Shown here: positions 1-4,748 of the stretch, piece by piece
How positions within the stretch are numbered: the first letter of the stretch is position 1
Layout: every line of letters starts with the position of its first letter
Origin: a virus
Lineage: Duplodnaviria; Heunggongvirae; Uroviricota; Caudoviricetes
DNA length: 4,748 nucleotides
IMG/VR virus record: IMGVR_UViG_2582580933_000017
Span: 1 to 4,748 of that record
Strand: one strand, 5' to 3'
Notes under the pieces: model-generated
Databases searched by the model: none
What the model saw: the letters and a program-made list of their open reading frames with translations, nothing else
Told to the model about the DNA's origin: nothing
Position numbers and translations under genes: made by a program

Positions 1-99
1 TTCCGCTTCTTCTGCTGGCAGTACAACGTTGCTACCAGGTCCGTATGTTTCGCGCCACTGCTTGATTGTCAGTAGTCGCTCTTTGGTAATAGTGATCAT
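1..99 (-). CDS. hypothetical protein, N-terminal fragment (gene continues beyond the left edge)
   Basis: Minus-strand ATG at 99..97 overlaps the TGA stop (98..96) of the upstream gene (ATGA). A purine-rich AAGGAA lies about 8 nt upstream. The frame stays open for 33 codons to position 1 (MITITKERLLTIKQWRETYGPGSNVVLPAEEAE...). No family recognised. Confidence 0.45.
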   Translation of the reverse strand, partial: MITITKERLLTIKQWRETYGPGSNVVLPAEEAE

Positions 100-611
100 G
101 CCGCGTTTCCTTCTTTCTTATTAACAATTACACCGTCATATATTTCATTAAGGTGCCCTCTCAACTCCATGCGCCTTAATGCAGATAACATGTAATCGCA
201 TTCAACCTGCTTATTTCCAGTAAATGGCTTATCGTCAGGATTACCCCAACAGCAATTACCCTTGGGCCACCCATGTACTTTCCGTACTCTTCCGTTAACA
301 ACGTGAAGTAATCCCCAGCCAGGTGGTAAATCCTCAACTGAAATAATTCCCGGCTCACTAATAAAGAATCGCCAGTCGCCCATTCCAAGAGATGGATTTT
401 TACGAAAACGCTTTTTTCTATCTGCCAACAAGTCAGCACGAGAACACTTCGCCTCTATCAGGCATGATGCTGAATTTCTGAATCCCATAGCATCTGGCTG
501 TTCTCCGGTACTGGTTACAGCTATAAAGCGGTCATGAAAACAAACCTTGAACCCGTTGCGCTTAAGGAACTTATACGCAATCTGACAGAGTTCGCGGTGT
601 GTTAACGCCAT
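96..611 (-). CDS. PD-(D/E)xK nuclease-fold protein (restriction-endonuclease-like), 171 aa
   Basis: ORF-track frame 96..683, trimmed to the ATG at 611..609, which has an AAGGAGAG Shine-Dalgarno 4 nt upstream and sits 1 nt after the upstream stop (TGATATG). The protein (MALTHRELCQIAYKFLKRNGFKVCFHDRFIAVTSTGEQPDAMGFRNSASCLIEAKCS...) has a helix-then-strands N-terminus and a PD...(E)xK signature (QPD followed 12 residues later by EAK). Fold call is by motif only. Confidence 0.7.
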   Translation of the reverse strand: MALTHRELCQIAYKFLKRNGFKVCFHDRFIAVTSTGEQPDAMGFRNSASCLIEAKCSRADLLADRKKRFRKNPSLGMGDWRFFISEPGIISVEDLPPGWGLLHVVNGRVRKVHGWPKGNCCWGNPDDKPFTGNKQVECDYMLSALRRMELRGHLNEIYDGVIVNKKEGNAA

Positions 612-612
612 A

Positions 613-801
613 TCACTCTCCTTTAGTGCGCAAGTGGTTTTTCCAGCGGTTTTGCGCCGCGCTGGGCTTTTTGCAAAAACCACAATCCATCATCCCGTAA
701 TATTTCATCAACCCCATCCGTCGGTTGCTGAGTCTCACCCACTGCCAGACGCCAGGAGCGTTTCTACGAACTAACAGAATCTTTGCTTTACGGTTTTTCA
801 T
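613..801 (-). CDS. small basic hypothetical protein, 62 aa (MKNRKAK family, copy 1)
   Basis: ORF-track ORF. Its ATG (801..799) overlaps the stop of the upstream paralogue (ATGA). Its C-terminus ...RTKGE is encoded by AAAGGAGAG, which doubles as the Shine-Dalgarno for the next gene. Lys/Arg-rich. Paralogous to 798..974. Confidence 0.55.
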   Translation of the reverse strand: MKNRKAKILLVRRNAPGVWQWVRLSNRRMGLMKYYGMMDCGFCKKPSAAQNRWKNHLRTKGE

Positions 802-802
802 C
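782..802. repeat. 21-bp near-exact direct repeat (copy 1) at the start of the MKNRKAK paralogues; second copy at 955..975
   Basis: TTACGGTTTTTCATC is identical at 788..802 and 961..975, extended by TTTGC(T/C) upstream (1 mismatch in 21). It corresponds to the ATGAAAAACCGTAA (MKNRK) starts of the two tandem paralogues on the minus strand. Confidence 0.75.
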
Positions 803-974
803 TTACAGCGTACCCTTTCTTCCGCCTGTTCTGTGACGCAGTAGGCTTACGCTTTGCGGCAAAAGCCACCTGACCAAATGGATGGAGTACCGCTATCTTA
901 TGGTTGCTAATAACCAGCTCCACCACACGCACAGGTCGCTGTAAAAAAAGTCGTTTTGCCTTACGGTTTTTCAT
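798..974 (-). CDS. small basic hypothetical protein, 58 aa (MKNRKAK family, copy 2)
   Basis: Not in the ORF track (below cutoff); found by manual translation: MKNRKAKRLFLQRPVRVVELVISNHKIAVLHPFGQVAFAAKRKPTASQNRRKKGYAVR. ATG at 974..972 with AGGAGA 8 nt upstream; stop TGA at 800..798. Shares the N-terminal MKNRKAK and the C-terminal KP(T/S)A(S/A)QNR(R/W)K motif with the 613..801 product. The DNA has a matching 15-bp exact repeat at both start sites. Confidence 0.5.
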   Translation of the reverse strand: MKNRKAKRLFLQRPVRVVELVISNHKIAVLHPFGQVAFAAKRKPTASQNRRKKGYAVR

Positions 975-1147
975 CGCTTTGCTCTCCTGCGTCTCTTTGC
1001 TGCTCGTCGTGCCGCTGCAATACCGGTATGGCGGCGCTTTGGTGCTGGGGTGATGTTGTCAGCCATCAGGACCTGTGGCTTTGCAATTAGCGCAGAAGCC
1101 CAAAAACGAGTCGGGTACGGTAACAAGCCGATACATGCCACACGCAT
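971..1147 (-). CDS. small hypothetical protein, 58 aa, with a poly-Arg/Lys C-terminal tail
   Basis: Not in the ORF track; found by manual translation: MRVACIGLLPYPTRFWASALIAKPQVLMADNITPAPKRRHTGIAAARRAAKRRRRAKR. ATG at 1147..1145 with a canonical AAGGAGG Shine-Dalgarno 6 nt upstream, overlapping the upstream TAA (TAATG). Stop TGA at 973..971 overlaps the next ATG (ATGA). It fills what would otherwise look like a 170-bp intergenic gap. An internal in-frame ATG at 1066 is an alternative start. Confidence 0.45.
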   Translation of the reverse strand: MRVACIGLLPYPTRFWASALIAKPQVLMADNITPAPKRRHTGIAAARRAAKRRRRAKR

Positions 1148-1635
1148 TACTCACCTCCTTTGATGCGAATGCCTGTTGCAATGCTGTTTATGATGCTGTC
1201 AGTGCATGGGGTAGAAAGCTGGGCATCTCCAGCAATTTTCATGACATCAACATCTGCATATCGAATACCGAGGTGTATCAGACCGGCTATACCTGACTTA
1301 AGCCGAGCATTTTCCATAAACAGATCCTTTGCCCGCTGTTTTTCTGCCTCAAGCTCAACGCGCAACTTCCCTACCGTTAGCGCAATATCCTCGTTCTCCT
1401 GATCGCGGGATTTGATGTATTGCTGGTTTCTTTCCCGTTCATCCAGTAGTGCCAGCACGGTTTCTGGTCCGGCCAGAAATTTGAAGGCGTTGAGCGCATC
1501 AATATCCACACCGTAATCTTTAAGTTCCTGTTCACTTAACAAATCATCATCAGCTGGCAACATTAACAGGCGTTCCATTGCTGGAATTGCACGTTCCGCC
1601 GCCTCACGCAGTGCCTGATAGTCAATCTTGCTCAC
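1147..1635 (-). CDS. coiled-coil phage protein, resembles the Ead/Ea22-like family (from memory, unverified)
   Basis: ORF-track ORF of 162 aa. GTG start at 1635..1633 preceded by AAGGAGGCAACCA, overlapping the upstream stop (GTGA). N-terminus SKIDYQALREAAERA and a charged coiled-coil-like middle (ERERNQQYIKSRDQENEDIALTVGKLRVELEAEKQRAKDL). C-terminus ...IKGGE is encoded by AAAGGAGGTGAG, which gives the Shine-Dalgarno for the next gene. Confidence 0.65.
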   Translation of the reverse strand: MSKIDYQALREAAERAIPAMERLLMLPADDDLLSEQELKDYGVDIDALNAFKFLAGPETVLALLDERERNQQYIKSRDQENEDIALTVGKLRVELEAEKQRAKDLFMENARLKSGIAGLIHLGIRYADVDVMKIAGDAQLSTPCTDSIINSIATGIRIKGGE

Positions 1636-1648
1636 TGGTTGCCTCCTT
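1631..1648. repeat. 18-bp exact direct repeat (copy 1) at a gene junction; second copy at 1951..1968
   Basis: CTCACTGGTTGCCTCCTT occurs at 1631..1648 and 1951..1968, with imperfect similarity for about 19 more bp (13 of 19 match). On the minus strand each copy encodes the end of one gene (GGNQ stop), an AAGGAGG Shine-Dalgarno and the GTG start of the next. Confidence 0.8.
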
Positions 1649-1955
1649 TTCGAAGCTGGGCGGCGATATCTTCGAGAACGCCATCAGAGAATGAGCGGTC
1701 AAAATCGCCTTCCGGCGCATTAGCCATAAACTCAGTAGAGGTAAGAATCATCCGGGCAATATCCGCGGCGTTCTTCGCGGTATCATCAATAAAACCAGCT
1801 TCCCAGGCAGCCAGCATTCTGTTCGCCACAAAATAAGCGCCTTCCTTGCGTGCTTCAGTCTTCACTTCAGCTAGAAAAGCATCGGTATGGCAATGGAATG
1901 AGGCGTTATTACCCACAATTTCACGCAAGCACATCATGTAAAAACGGTTACTCAC
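1632..1955 (-). CDS. hypothetical protein, 107 aa
   Basis: ORF-track frame 1632..1991, trimmed to the GTG at 1955..1953, which has the same AAGGAGGCAACCAGTGAG context as the next gene and overlaps the upstream stop (GTGA). The ATG at 1991 has only a poorly spaced GGGAG and would overlap the upstream gene by about 40 nt. C-terminus ...IAAQLRKGGNQ is shared with the 1952..2191 product. Confidence 0.6.
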   Translation of the reverse strand: MSNRFYMMCLREIVGNNASFHCHTDAFLAEVKTEARKEGAYFVANRMLAAWEAGFIDDTAKNAADIARMILTSTEFMANAPEGDFDRSFSDGVLEDIAAQLRKGGNQ

Positions 1956-1968
1956 TGGTTGCCTCCTT
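1951..1968. repeat. 18-bp exact direct repeat (copy 2) at a gene junction
   Basis: Same sequence as 1631..1648; see that entry. Confidence 0.8.
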
Positions 1969-2191
1969 GGCGGAGTTGCGCTGCGATGCATGAAAAAAAA
2001 GACTCCCGAGTGTGACAGTTAAGAGCTGGTGCGAACGCCGCGTTAAGAACGGCGGCATCACAGCCGTCATCAATATAGAGCGCAATTTTTTTCTCCAGGC
2101 GCGCTTTGGCTTCCTGCAACTGCATACCCCGGCACGCACGCGGGATATAATCAGCAATTTGAGCGATAGCTTTTTCGTTCTGTTTAAACAT
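1952..2191 (-). CDS. hypothetical protein, 79 aa
   Basis: ORF-track ORF. ATG at 2191..2189 with GAGGTG 4 nt upstream, overlapping the end of the upstream gene by 8 nt. C-terminus ...IAAQLRQGGNQ; its last codons CAAGGAGGCAACCAGTGA carry the Shine-Dalgarno and GTG start of the next gene. Confidence 0.55.
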   Translation of the reverse strand: MFKQNEKAIAQIADYIPRACRGMQLQEAKARLEKKIALYIDDGCDAAVLNAAFAPALNCHTRESFFSCIAAQLRQGGNQ

Positions 2192-2387
2192 GCTTCACCT
2201 CGATAGGCTTGATGGTGTCTAACAGCAGTCGGCGGCGCGTATTTTCTGCAAAATGGCGGCGTCCAGTTTCTTTGTGGTAAAACTCGTTTTTGCCAACGAC
2301 CCACATCCGCTCTGTTTGGTGCAGTTTTTTTACCTTCGGGCCATCTTTGGTGATCACGGTACCGGTATGGGTTTTTACGATTGTCAT
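2184..2387 (-). CDS. hypothetical protein, 67 aa
   Basis: ORF-track ORF. ATG at 2387..2385 overlaps the TGA of the PAPS-reductase-like gene (ATGA), with GAAGAGG upstream. Basic protein (MTIVKTHTGTVITKDGPKVKKLHQTERMWVVGKNEFYHKETGRRHF...). No family recognised. Confidence 0.55.
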   Translation of the reverse strand: MTIVKTHTGTVITKDGPKVKKLHQTERMWVVGKNEFYHKETGRRHFAENTRRRLLLDTIKPIEVKHV

Positions 2388-3262
2388 TCCACTACCTCTT
2401 CGAATTTCAACTCCAATTGGTCACCCCAGATTTCACATGATTCGGAACACGAACCAGTATCAAACCGCTTGGCCAGCACCATCGCCTGATACAAATTTCT
2501 GTAGTCACTGTCGGCATACATTCTGGCAATCCCGTCAAGCGTCAGGTGGCCACGGTACATAACGTCTTTACCTGTTCTGCGATGACCATCCCTGACGTGT
2601 TTGCCTGTAACCAGTTCATTAAAAACCCGCATCAGACCTGGTTCGTCTTTACATGCAAGCCCCAGCTTTTGCGTTGACTTTTTGATGCAAAAAACACAGT
2701 TCCCGAGGTGCTCCGGGATTTGCAAATCAAAAGGTTGTTTTCGCCACCACCGGATAACATCCGACTTATCAAAATCTGACAGTTCGGCAAGATACCGGAC
2801 GCCCGGTTTCGGTTTCAGCCTACGGGGTTCGTCCGCACGAATACCCAGCCATGTGATGTAATTCCCTCGCCCAAAATGGTCATCGCAATATTTCGTGAAA
2901 GGGGTGAGTTTTAGCCTGTCAGTACAGAACGCGCCGCCGATGTATGGCGTACCGTACTTTTTAACCATGTCCATAAACGGTTTAAGCACCGGCATTCGCG
3001 TCTGAATATCCTTTGGTTCCCATTCCGTATAACCATTTGGCTGCCCAATTTCTGGATTTATATCGACCTGCAACACCGTTAGCGGTACGTTCCAGAACTT
3101 CACAACCTCACGAATAAAGCGATACGTCAGAGGATGTTCACAGCCGGTATCCATAAAAATGAAATGGACGCTAGCGCCAGCTTTTCGCTGTGCTTCCATC
3201 AGATGAACGAGATAAGCCGATGTTCGTCCACCTGAAAAGCTGACGACTTGATGCATACTCAC
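2384..3262 (-). CDS. phosphoadenosine phosphosulfate (PAPS) reductase family protein, PP-loop ATP pyrophosphatase fold (CysH/DndC-like)
   Basis: ORF-track ORF of 292 aa. N-terminal PP-loop VVSFSGGRTSAY (SGGxxS). The stretch FMDTGCEHPLTYRFIREV matches the CysH-family DTG...ETYRFI region. C-terminal cysteines (GNCVFC and GSCSESC) could bind a metal or Fe-S cluster. Start is GTG at 3262 (AGGA 7 nt upstream) or ATG at 3256; both in frame. Confidence 0.85.
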   Translation of the reverse strand: MSMHQVVSFSGGRTSAYLVHLMEAQRKAGASVHFIFMDTGCEHPLTYRFIREVVKFWNVPLTVLQVDINPEIGQPNGYTEWEPKDIQTRMPVLKPFMDMVKKYGTPYIGGAFCTDRLKLTPFTKYCDDHFGRGNYITWLGIRADEPRRLKPKPGVRYLAELSDFDKSDVIRWWRKQPFDLQIPEHLGNCVFCIKKSTQKLGLACKDEPGLMRVFNELVTGKHVRDGHRRTGKDVMYRGHLTLDGIARMYADSDYRNLYQAMVLAKRFDTGSCSESCEIWGDQLELKFEEVVE

Positions 3263-3265
3263 GGT

Positions 3266-3844
3266 TTATTCCTGAATGCGCTTAAACTCGATTACCCATA
3301 CCAACGGGTTAGATAGCCAGTTATCCTGCCCGTAAATACTGCGCCAGATATCACCAAAACCAACGCGATAAACAGCTTCAGATGGCGTAATCTTGTACGT
3401 CGCCGGAGTTGCGCCTTCTGCTTTAGCATCTGCCTCGCTCATGTCATGCAGCCGTTCCACACGCACGTCGGTAATTTCCAGAAGAATGCGCGATGCCCAG
3501 CGCGGCATGTGAATTGATGGCGTCCACTTTTCTGATACTGGTTTATTACAAACCTCGACCGGAACCCGGTGCGTTTGTTCTGTCCAGGAGTTACGCACGC
3601 TTGCGCGATAAACCAGCGTTGCGACGTCCGTCGCTTTGCCATGTACCCGGTAGGTTTCGCGAACCCAAATACGATCGCCCGGTTGACCATATGGACAATG
3701 CTTGGCAAGCAACTCTGCGGCCACTGCCCGTCCATAGAATTTTTCTTCAACAATCCTGCGAGTCTGTGTTTTATTCCCGCCAAGAATTGCCCGGACCATC
3801 TCATCGTTAAAAATCATGCCGCGCTCTTTCACTTCGCCTTTCAT
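3266..3844 (-). CDS. ASCH-domain protein (PUA-like fold), YqfB-like ends with a large internal insertion
   Basis: ORF-track ORF of 192 aa. N-terminal ILGGNKTQTRR matches the ASCH GxKxxExR-type motif (recalled E. coli YqfB: ILAGRKTITIRD). C-terminal VWVIEFKRI matches the YqfB end FYVIEFKCL. ATG at 3844 has an AAGGGGGA Shine-Dalgarno; an alternative in-frame start is the ATG at 3817 (MIFNDEM...), where the ASCH alignment begins. Confidence 0.75.
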   Translation of the reverse strand: MKGEVKERGMIFNDEMVRAILGGNKTQTRRIVEEKFYGRAVAAELLAKHCPYGQPGDRIWVRETYRVHGKATDVATLVYRASVRNSWTEQTHRVPVEVCNKPVSEKWTPSIHMPRWASRILLEITDVRVERLHDMSEADAKAEGATPATYKITPSEAVYRVGFGDIWRSIYGQDNWLSNPLVWVIEFKRIQE

Positions 3845-3853
3845 ACATCCCCC

Positions 3854-3940
3854 TTACCCATGTGCGACGATGCCGCCAAAAGTGATAGAGAACAGCCAGA
3901 AATAGATCGCGGCCATAATGATTTTGAATGCCGTGTTCAT
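3854..3940 (-). CDS. small hydrophobic (single predicted transmembrane helix) peptide, 28 aa
   Basis: Not in the ORF track; found by manual translation: MNTAFKIIMAAIYFWLFSITFGGIVAHG. ATG at 3940..3938 with AGGAG 8 nt upstream (3953..3949). Stop TAA at 3856..3854; its last codons plus GGGGGA form the Shine-Dalgarno of the ASCH gene 9 nt downstream. Confidence 0.45.
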   Translation of the reverse strand: MNTAFKIIMAAIYFWLFSITFGGIVAHG

Positions 3941-3967
3941 ATTTTCAGCTCCTGTGATTGATTGGAT

Positions 3968-3999
3968 ACATGCCGCGCCTTGCGGCATGTTTTAATTTT
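3968..3999 (+). terminator. plus-strand-oriented intrinsic-terminator-like hairpin (also a perfect palindrome that could be an operator)
   Basis: Perfect 9-bp inverted repeat ACATGCCGC (3968..3976) / GCGGCATGT (3982..3990) with loop GCCTT, followed on the plus strand by TTTAATTTTC. No T-tract follows it on the minus strand. It lies in the gap between the HAD gene stop (4039) and the small-peptide Shine-Dalgarno (3953). Confidence 0.4.
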
Positions 4000-4023
4000 C
4001 ACTTTCTCTGTTTTAAAAATCAA
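3995..4023 (-). promoter_or_regulatory. candidate sigma70-type promoter for the minus-strand genes downstream
   Basis: On the minus strand: TTGATT (4023..4018), a 17-nt AT-rich spacer, then GAAAAT (4000..3995). This would start transcription at or inside the palindrome at 3968..3990. Weak consensus match (4/6 and 4/6); not verified. Confidence 0.25.
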
Positions 4024-4038
4024 GATTTATTAGAGCAA

Positions 4039-4545
4039 TTATTGTTGATGAAGAAGTGCATTTTCATATTCCCTGACCATTAACGTAAGTACGCCGTGAC
4101 TCCTGAAAACACGCGCCACTTCAATCTTATCTTCCAGCGCGAACGCAATTTTACTTAGACCAATTTTCTTCAGGAGATCAATCTTTGCAGGGCCGTCATT
4201 TCTGTCATCGGTGGCAGGACGCATAGATAGCAAAGGCTCAGCCCCATTTGTTACGTGCTTACGCAGCCAGGCTCGTGTTTTATCCCTTGCGATCTCACAG
4301 CGCCCGGTTACAAACCAGACCGTGTAAACGTTAAATAACTGGCGCACCATATCAATAACCGGAGTGATGGGAGTATCGGTGTCACAGGCGAGATTAAACT
4401 CGTTCCAGTCCTTTGTTAATGCACCTTTACCTGGTGGCGGAAGCAAATGCAGTCTGTCTTCAGTTGCCTCTGATATTGTTCCATCAATATCGACTATGAC
4501 GATATACGGACGTTCCTGGTGTGCGTGTTTATTGAAAATACTCAA
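4039..4545 (-). CDS. HAD-superfamily phosphatase (nucleotidase or polynucleotide 3'-phosphatase-like)
   Basis: ORF-track ORF of 168 aa. HAD motif I IVIVDIDGT (DxDGT) near the N-terminus and a motif II-like VWFVTGR. Start is TTG at 4545..4543 with a GAGGAGGG Shine-Dalgarno 3-4 nt upstream; there is no in-frame ATG further upstream. Confidence 0.75.
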   Translation of the reverse strand: MSIFNKHAHQERPYIVIVDIDGTISEATEDRLHLLPPPGKGALTKDWNEFNLACDTDTPITPVIDMVRQLFNVYTVWFVTGRCEIARDKTRAWLRKHVTNGAEPLLSMRPATDDRNDGPAKIDLLKKIGLSKIAFALEDKIEVARVFRSHGVLTLMVREYENALLHQQ

Positions 4546-4563
4546 ATGCCCTCCTCATTGGAC

Positions 4564-4598
4564 GAAAAAAATGCTGGTGGGCGCACTCCACCAGCATT
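4564..4598 (-). terminator. rho-independent terminator, minus-strand orientation
   Basis: Perfect 11-bp inverted repeat AATGCTGGTGG (4570..4580) / CCACCAGCATT (4588..4598) with a 7-nt loop. On the minus strand it is followed by a run of 7 T (plus-strand A-run 4564..4570). It lies between the stop of the upstream partial gene (4618) and the HAD Shine-Dalgarno (4556..4549). Confidence 0.65.
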
Positions 4599-4617
4599 AA
4601 AAGTGACACTGTAACTA

Positions 4618-4748
4618 TCAGCGGACGTAAATAGTGCCGCCGTTCTCTTTTTCCCATGCATCGCTACGTGCATAGCAAACATCGAGAAGTCTTCTTGCCG
4701 CTGTTTCCTCTAAACCCAATTCGACAACCAACTGCTCATGACGGCGGG
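4618..4748 (-). CDS. hypothetical protein, C-terminal fragment (gene begins beyond the right edge)
   Basis: Minus-strand frame open from the window edge for 42 codons (...RRHEQLVVELGLEETAARRLLDVCYARSDAWEKENGGTIYVR) to TGA at 4620..4618, just upstream of the terminator. No family recognised. Confidence 0.45.
   Translation of the reverse strand, partial: RRHEQLVVELGLEETAARRLLDVCYARSDAWEKENGGTIYVR

Follow-up and report, generated by a model that had tools for sequence, protein, structure and literature searches.

Organization of the three open reading frames

Analysis of a 4,748-nucleotide window (the whole stretch of DNA analysed, positions 1 to 4,748 of the IMG/VR record IMGVR_UViG_2582580933_000017, a virus of the Caudoviricetes) revealed three small open reading frames (ORFs) on the minus strand between positions 613 and 1147. 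Read along that strand, ORF3 (971..1147, 58 amino acids) comes first and has the C-terminal end RRAAKRRRRAKR. It is followed by ORF2 (798..974, 58 amino acids), which reads MKNRKAKRLF...RKPTASQNRRKKGYAVR, and by ORF1 (613..801, 62 amino acids), which reads MKNRKAKILL...KKPSAAQNRWKNHLRTKGE. ORF2 and ORF1 are the upstream and downstream copies of a pair from one family, referred to here as the MKNRKAK family; ORF2 represents its SNHK/QNRRK subtype and ORF1 its SNRR/QNRWKNH subtype. ORF3 is a member of PHROG 13831. All three products are strongly basic, with net charges of +14, +15 and +14 and isoelectric points of 11.3, 12.0 and 12.0 for ORF1, ORF2 and ORF3, respectively. The N-terminal half of ORF3 is hydrophobic with prolines (MRVACIGLLPYPTRFWASALIAKP) and its C-terminal tail is arginine-rich (PKRRHTGIAAARRAAKRRRRAKR).

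The shared MKNRKAK starts, the shared C-terminal motif, the ATGA links and the AAGGAGG Shine-Dalgarno sequence of ORF3, all reported in a first-pass annotation of the window, were found exactly where that annotation had placed them, on the minus strand. The Shine-Dalgarno sequence occupies 1160..1154 on the minus strand, six bases 5' of the ORF3 start codon ATG (1147..1145; region 1145..1160). Direct reading of the minus strand gives an ATGA overlap between the ORF3 stop and the ORF2 start at 971..974 and another between the ORF2 stop and the ORF1 start at 798..801. A direct repeat, described earlier as 15 exact base pairs, covers the starts of the two MKNRKAK genes: 15 nt is indeed the longest exact stretch (GATGAAAAACCGTAA on the coding strand, judged by eye), and the full repeat extends to 21 nt with one mismatch (copies at 782..802 and 955..975, strand not assigned; 95% identity, spacing 173). 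ORF1 and ORF2 both carry the C-terminal motif KP(S/T)A(A/S)QNR(W/R)K and align by BLASTP with 37% identity across 54 residues (E=5e-10), a likeness beyond chance that bears out their earlier description as tandem paralogues. Direct comparison gave no kinship of ORF3 with the MKNRKAK family. No relevant promoters or terminators were found within 613-1147.

Protein families and distribution

Searches of phage databases, which the first-pass annotation had called for, assigned all three ORFs to catalogued families. ORF1 matched PHROG 1380 with E=1e-40 (residues 1-62 on profile positions 1-62) and ORF2 matched the same family with E=6.5e-23 (residues 1-58 on 1-60), while ORF3 matched PHROG 13831 with E=5.3e-40 (residues 1-58 on 1-58). 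Each exact protein is already in public databases under a hypothetical or prophage label; at least 1000 contigs carry ORF1, the same holds for ORF2, and ORF3 is found on 120. ORF2 is a RefSeq MULTISPECIES hypothetical protein and occurs as YP_007001967 in phage TL-2011b. The earlier description of the ORFs as unlisted proved to be an artefact of the 60-amino-acid threshold of the ORF track, since public records carry annotations for all three. The families are thus already catalogued in PHROG and RefSeq, and they are ordinary, uncharacterised small phage early protein families rather than a new kind of system.

An 801-bp stretch of the window is 99.3% identical to the 'Punavirus P1' record MH422554 and to the 97-kb Escherichia coli plasmid NZ_CP033848. 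In this plasmid ORF1 is annotated as WP_000797279.1 at identical coordinates, and the NCBI Prokaryotic Genome Annotation Pipeline (PGAP) omits ORF2 and ORF3; a gene labelled 'antitoxin PHD' stands a few kb from the module (locus L001, 42185-50985). Parts of the 801-bp stretch occur in 227 phage records, mostly Shiga toxin (Stx)-converting phages. At least part of it matches 1427 of 5426 complete E. coli genomes, Stx-converting prophages included, and 548 of the 2119 matching places in E. coli genomes are plasmid-borne.

Members of the families were found by tblastn in Stx phages, P1-like phages, phiV10-type phages, Salmonella Sashavirus and the Vequintavirinae phage Av-05, all annotated as hypothetical. 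The distribution is narrow, covering phages of E. coli, Shigella and Salmonella. A profile search run exhaustively over 1.84 billion cluster representatives gave 48 matches only, and the credible ones were all small MKNRKAK-family proteins. In GTDB species-representative genomes, a gapped degenerate two-motif pattern found the MKNRKAK family essentially absent, with one match; this match is a 228-bp contig of Acinetobacter idrijaensis (JQCU01000388.1, locus L124) and is probably enterobacterial phage contamination. A literature search returned no paper with MKNRKAK, the accessions or the PHROG identifiers.

Evidence for coding

Coding tests were made independently of existing gene calls. A scan of IMG/VR with the first 20 nt of the MKNRKAK gene (ATGAAAAACCGTAARGCAAA) gave at least 120 contigs, which with the window and three annotated records make 124 sequences and 167 copies. 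Among the matches listed, about 160 of the 167 copies anchored on these 20 nt hold an ORF of 58-65 amino acids in frame, and the kept frame spans at least nine divergent classes whose middle thirds are hardly alignable. With any frame allowed, the C-terminal motif was in frame with the ATG in 88 of 92 unique sequences, at spacings of 141, 144, 147 or 150 nt. In the converse scan, anchored on the 3' motif, the motif's frame stays open back to an xNRKA(K/R) start in 114 of 124 instances among the matches listed. N-terminal variants with a different DNA context (MATNNRKAK, MTNRKAR, MSMSNRKAR and VMDNRKAR) keep the protein motif.

The ratio of nonsynonymous to synonymous differences (pN/pS) was obtained from Nei-Gojobori estimates pooled over pairs. 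The ORF2-type 58-amino-acid class gave 0.35 in the proposed frame versus 0.77 and 1.17 in the other frames, and the ORF1-type 62-amino-acid class gave 0.39 versus 0.88 and 0.74; the 63-amino-acid class, which is little diverged, does not discriminate (0.58 versus 0.60 and 0.67). For ORF3, pN/pS was 0.42 in frame versus 1.98 and 0.85 out of frame, and 80 database homologues of ORF3 retain its length and frame down to 53% identity. At SNHK, pS was 0.72 and pN 0.06, and at the ORF2-type C-terminus pS was 0.43 and pN 0.04-0.07. Since synonymous sites are near saturation here while the amino acids stay fixed, motif conservation in the ORF2 class acts on the protein and not on the DNA. Conservation of the reading frames in related sequences had been named in the first-pass annotation as the check on coding, and both the kept frames and the low in-frame pN/pS favour it.

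Conserved motifs and selection

Purifying selection centres on three basic or polar motifs of the MKNRKAK family, namely the N-terminal NRKA(K/R), SN(R/H)(R/K) and QNR(W/R)K. A signature was derived for PHROG 1380, consisting of xNRKA(K/R)xL, (I/V)SN(R/H)(R/K) and (S/T)A(A/S)QNR(W/R)K, and all three elements are present in ORF1 and ORF2. Across an alignment of 35 diverse members N3, R4 and R52 never vary, and S25, N26, Q50 and N51 reach at least 90% conservation. The signature of PHROG 13831 combines LLPxP in the N-terminal half with the tail TGIAAARRAAK(K/R)RRR; its columns are invariant or at least 90% conserved among 22 members, and ORF3 carries both elements.

Segment pN/pS values are lowest at the motifs (0.08-0.22 overall), with 0.09-0.20 at SN(R/H)(R/K) and 0.15-0.21 at QNR(W/R)K. 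The variable middle gave 0.45-0.66, and the sole value above 1 (1.41) belongs to a five-codon segment with few changes. The first-pass annotation had read the divergence of the tandem copies as a sign of diversifying selection. This is not supported by the coarse segment test, in which nearly all segments fall below 1, the motifs appear to be under purifying selection and the middle appears relaxed rather than positively selected.

Predicted structure and function searches

AlphaFold2 modelling of ORF1 from a 35-sequence alignment gave a mean predicted local distance difference test score (pLDDT) of 80.9 and a predicted template modelling score of 0.51; an earlier model from 20 sequences had a pLDDT of 64. 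The predicted fold is a helix, a three-strand sheet and a second helix (helix 4-11; strands 20-25, 28-32 and 38-43; helix 48-60). In this model strands 1 and 2 flank SN(R/H)(R/K), and QNR(W/R)K opens the C-terminal helix.

A Foldseek comparison of the 20-sequence ORF1 model with the PDB gave nothing below E=1, and profiles of both families retrieved no PDB sequence even with E allowed up to 10. Nothing passed the threshold when the three ORFs were scanned against Pfam and NCBIfam, or when 20 and 22 family members were scanned against Pfam. Several candidates were set aside. Matches to Adeno_PV, Myb and NdhS were weak, sporadic and/or compositional. A C2H2 zinc finger (zf-C2H2_jaz) scored 13.3 bits against a gathering cutoff of 22.6 in one of 20 members, and its Cys/His positions are not conserved. 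The resemblance of ILLTRR to CsrA/RsmA is coincidental, with an hhalign probability of 0.25% and no Pfam CsrA match, and the lambda Int arm-type DNA-binding domain, which has the same strand/helix order, was rejected by hhalign profile comparison. No sequence or fold search tied the three proteins to any characterised nucleic-acid binder.

Cassette boundaries and variation

Directly upstream of ORF3 lies an Ead/Ea22-like gene of 162 amino acids (1147..1635, minus strand; Pfam Ead_Ea22, E=4.6e-33), whose conserved C-terminus (...IRIKGGE) is the upstream boundary of the cassette. Its stop codon TAA (1149..1147) overlaps the ORF3 start (1147..1145) in a TAATG junction read directly from the minus strand. 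At the other end, the junction AAAGGAGAGTGATATG (609..624, minus strand) holds the ORF1 stop TGA at 615..613 and the next start ATG at 611..609, and the final ORF1 codons (AAAGGAGAG TGA T ATG) double as the Shine-Dalgarno sequence of the next gene (GGAG, 621..618). The order is therefore Ea22-like gene (TAATG), ORF3 (ATGA), ORF2 (ATGA), ORF1 (TGAtATG) and next gene. Stops and starts overlap or nearly abut throughout, which suggests translational coupling. All long ORFs of the window lie on the minus strand and are densely packed.

The gene downstream of ORF1 (96..611, minus strand, 171 amino acids; phrog_631/phrog_9263) stands in a slot occupied by differing genes across phages, and some phage annotations fuse it to ORF1 (phrog_9263, 230 amino acids). 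Its D...(I/L)EAK pattern (DAMGF...LIEAKCS) is reminiscent of PD-(D/E)xK nucleases. It gave a weak match to a DNA-repair PHROG (E=0.003) and was without match in Pfam and NCBIfam.

Comparison of relatives revealed a variable copy number. Among the matches listed, 83 of the 124 sequences have a single MKNRKAK copy, 39 have two and two have three; of 43 junctions between successive copies in IMG/VR loci, 39 have the 4-nt ATGA overlap, with spacings of 173, 176 or 179 nt; the first copy is usually preceded, with an ATGA overlap, by an ORF3-type gene ending ...RRRAKR; and 94 of 118 genes anchored on the ORF3 tail precede an MKNRKAK-family gene. The first-copy junctions listed in the 124 source sequences all end in ATGA, usually as GAGAGCAAA(G/A)CGATGA. 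Usually the final copy finishes with AAAGGAGAGTGATATG, which is the commonest downstream junction among relatives, and the gene that comes next varies by phage. The junction between the Ea22-like stop and the ORF3 start is polymorphic (TAATG or TAGTG), with conserved context upstream of ORF3: a single A-to-G change turns the Ea22 stop from TAA to TAG and the ORF3 start from ATG to GTG, leaving both genes intact (55 ATG and 24 GTG among the matches listed).

The C-terminal tail of an MKNRKAK protein depends on its successor: a copy followed by another copy ends ...GYAVR*, and one followed by a different gene ends ...HLRTKGE*. Hybrids exist in which a body from one class carries another class's tail, and therefore recombination in the conserved C-terminal motif shuffles MKNRKAK genes. 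Judged from the sequences compared, this is a conserved mobile cassette of one protein with an arginine-rich tail (PHROG 13831) and one to three MKNRKAK proteins (PHROG 1380).

Genomic region

Besides Ead/Ea22-like modules, the window encodes a PAPS-reductase-family protein and a PNKP-type HAD phosphatase, and one of its genes gives a weak, sub-threshold ASCH-domain match. This gene content, with the near-identical P1-like records, identifies a lambdoid-type early accessory (ea/exo-xis) module, carried here by what is probably a P1-like phage-plasmid. More widely, the cassette belongs to the variable stretch of the exo-xis/ea accessory region in Stx and other lambdoid phages, and P1-like phage-plasmids have it too. 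In phage 933W, ORF3 (51 amino acids) and one ORF1-type copy lie unannotated between the Ea22-like gene L0069 and L0068, upstream of xis and int, which is the exo-xis accessory location (early leftward operon, ea22 to xis/int); the window itself contains no xis or int. RefSeq Stx phages have the same order, with a TraR/DksA gene just before ea22, and there PGAP has the 62-amino-acid gene and omits ORF3. The earlier suggestion that these small basic ORFs are phage early genes agrees with their place in a pL-type exo-xis/ea operon. Genes that lie in the exo-xis region influence the lysis-lysogeny decision and Stx prophage induction. A modelling review describes the region as transcribed early from pL (PMC8614690). 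The review section on exo-xis genes and the literature retrieved by term searches make no mention of the three ORFs.

Other features of the window were noted. A 40-nt direct repeat (1628-1667 and 1948-1987; 83% identity, spacing 320) spans two gene junctions, each copy encoding ...AAQLR(K/Q)GGNQ* together with the start codon (GTG or ATG) of the gene that follows; ORFs of 119 and 79 amino acids end alike in AAQLR(K/Q)GGNQ, and the repeat looks like a recurring boundary between Ea22-like modules. A highly hydrophobic ORF of 28 amino acids, MNTAFKIIMAAIYFWLFSITFGGIVAHG (3854-3940, minus strand; Kyte-Doolittle 2.10), has an AGGAG Shine-Dalgarno sequence and may encode a small membrane protein. 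It lies just upstream of the 192-amino-acid gene with the weak ASCH-domain match, and a hairpin with a 10-bp stem is present at 3968-3990. A strong intrinsic-terminator-like hairpin (4570-4598, minus strand; 11-bp stem, then seven T) stands just upstream of the HAD phosphatase gene (4039-4545), so that in this replicon the genes below the hairpin may be transcribed as a separate unit.

Proposed role and alternative explanations

The explanation that best covers these results, to which we give a probability of about 0.5, is that the three ORFs are real cassette genes of an early phage transcript and that their products bind a polyanion early. In this model the three ORFs would be tightly strung on that transcript, and their products, of about 6.5-7.4 kDa with charges of +14 to +15, would bind a polyanionic target and so act soon after infection or induction; RNA or DNA is the most likely target, and the transcription machinery a possible one. 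Nucleic-acid or polyanion binding taken by itself is a tentative proposal, drawn from the charge of +14/+15, the selection on basic and polar motifs and the early pL region. The three proteins are probably dispensable modulators rather than core functions. Several points weigh against the proposal: high positive charge alone cannot name the ligand, the pooled pN/pS pairs are non-independent and ORF3 substitutions are few, the IMG/VR locus counts are lower bounds from at least 120 loci per scan, and evidence of expression was absent from the literature search and from the supplements of a Ribo-seq small-gene study of enterohaemorrhagic E. coli Sakai. Because of the non-independent pairs and the few substitutions, the coding status of ORF3 is somewhat less certain than that of the other two; it is likely a real gene, and ORF1 and ORF2 are very probably so.

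Two explanations would deny the genes as proposed. The ORFs might be untranslated, serving as noncoding boundary DNA for module exchange in mosaic phages or as an RNA element; the ORF1-class ends do show low synonymous divergence (pS about 0.3 in the middle, falling to 0.08-0.10 at the C-terminus), hybrids exchange tails at KP(S/T)A(A/S)QNR and the last ORF1 codons also serve as a Shine-Dalgarno sequence. However, frame is kept through length changes in multiples of three in 88 of the 92 sequences, pN/pS is well under 1 in the proposed frame alone, SNHK and the ORF2-type C-terminus keep fixed amino acids at near-saturated synonymous sites, the protein motif persists across differing N-terminal DNA contexts and an Rfam search of the window was without match. 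Codon-level statistics thus argue strongly against this view, which we consider very improbable. A longer gene reading through in the ORF1 frame, starting upstream and overlapping ORF3 out of frame, is exceedingly improbable. It has a basis in annotation: VT2-Sakai orf8 is annotated with 155 amino acids (locus L164, 3762-4229), the 933W frame gives an ORF of 167 amino acids (locus L002, 2507-3010), Stx phages keep long frames of this kind open, and PHROG 12350 (155 amino acids), built on the long form, has ORF1 as its C-terminal third. In the window, however, ORF2 and not ORF3 precedes ORF1, and the listed ORF starts at the MKNRKAK ATG. The long form is not conserved, since the frame 5' of that start closes within a few codons in many relatives and soon in the window as well; the frame overlapping ORF3 has pN/pS of 0.85-1.98, and PGAP annotates the 62-amino-acid form. 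The 155-amino-acid form of older Stx-phage records and the 167-amino-acid ORF of 933W are both probably over-long gene calls.

Three further explanations accept the genes and differ on what their products do. The proteins may work mainly through contacts with the host transcription machinery, as small RNA polymerase modulators like other exo-xis proteins. Among the matches listed, about 19 loci have small proteins with the ORF3 tail (phrog_8108) followed by TraR/DksA zinc-finger genes with overlapping stop and start, and two loci are ordered tail protein, TraR-like gene and MKNRKAK relative; the TraR/DksA gene just upstream of ea22 in Stx phages points the same way. According to PMC9239242, homologues of TraR, lambda Orf73 among them, reprogram host transcription directly; the modelling review suggests roles for exo-xis proteins in transcription and RNA polymerase regulation (PMC8614690). 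Since TraR homologues act on RNA polymerase, the synteny makes a host-transcription role a reasonable rival, although an unlikely one: the argument is one of gene order, adjacency is common and weakly informative in mosaic early regions, and the proteins have no homology to TraR/DksA, Gp2 or any RNA-polymerase-binding family. A diversifying arms race of tandem copies with variable middles, for example inhibitors of host defence proteins, would fit a middle third that differs strongly among at least nine classes while the ends are fixed, a copy number of one to three and recombination between classes; the middle, however, is relaxed by its pN/pS (0.45-0.66), the only value above 1 comes from five codons, and this explanation appears quite unlikely. 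Membrane-active or toxic small peptides with Kil-like or type-I-toxin-like host killing are improbable. The hydrophobic N-terminal half of ORF3 and the N-terminus of the phrog_8108 relatives, which by eye resembles a signal or transmembrane segment (MKRTSIALAVMAGTLASV...), would suit such peptides, but the maximal 19-residue Kyte-Doolittle values (1.24 for ORF3, 0.96 for ORF2 and 0.21 for ORF1) are all below the usual transmembrane threshold of 1.6, two prolines in the N-terminal part of ORF3 (LLPYP) hardly vary, and ORF1 is modelled as a soluble alpha/beta fold.

Significance

The present analysis settles three ORFs that annotation pipelines call inconsistently as genuine genes. It is of practical use for annotation and for genetic studies of the Stx-phage exo-xis region; because the cassette lies in a region that influences lysis-lysogeny and Stx induction, its genes should be included when this region is dissected.

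Comparison with known systems

The N-terminus of the lambda N protein is an arginine-rich-motif (ARM) peptide that binds the boxB hairpin in the nut sites, and the N gene lies immediately downstream of pL. The tail of ORF3 (RRHTGIAAARRAAKRRRRAKR) is rich in alanine and arginine, with an ARM-like composition, and ORF3 is likewise a small early phage protein. However, its motif is C-terminal and not N-terminal, and its gene is downstream of ea22, far from pL and nut; the likeness is compositional only.

Lambda Ea8.5, Orf55 and the variable genes after ea22 occupy the same slot between ea22 and xis/int, belong to the early pL transcript and are small accessory proteins. The modelling review describes Ea8.5 as a homeodomain/zinc-finger fusion and Orf55 as Gp2-like, with three strands and one helix (PMC8614690). 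The likeness of Ea8.5 and Orf55 to ORF1 is positional only. Neither Ea8.5 (PDB 2M7A) nor Gp2 4LLG, the modelling template of Orf55, was among the PDB sequence or fold matches of ORF1, which differs from Orf55 in its predicted extra N-terminal helix and its charge of +14.

The phrog_8108 proteins share with ORF3 the C-terminal tail (TGIAAARRAAKKRRR; TGIAAARRAAK(K/R)RRR), a length of about 60 amino acids and an overlap with the start of a downstream small gene. They differ in an unrelated, more hydrophobic N-terminal half and in the partner, which is TraR/DksA-like and not MKNRKAK. Proteins of this type (60-61 amino acids) occur in IMG/VR loci L166-L201, for example in L169 (minus-strand match 7926), L167 (6249, plus strand) and L193. 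It is conceivable, though quite unlikely, that an ORF3-type protein and its overlapping partner form a two-gene early module against the host transcription or translation machinery, in which the MKNRKAK family would be an unrecognised class of small modulators that bind RNA polymerase or RNA and can trade places in the gene order with TraR/DksA-like proteins, and the variable middle would set target specificity. The closest known counterparts are PHROG 1380 and PHROG 13831 themselves, families without functional annotation, of which the three ORFs are plain members with matching lengths of 62, 58 and 58 amino acids.

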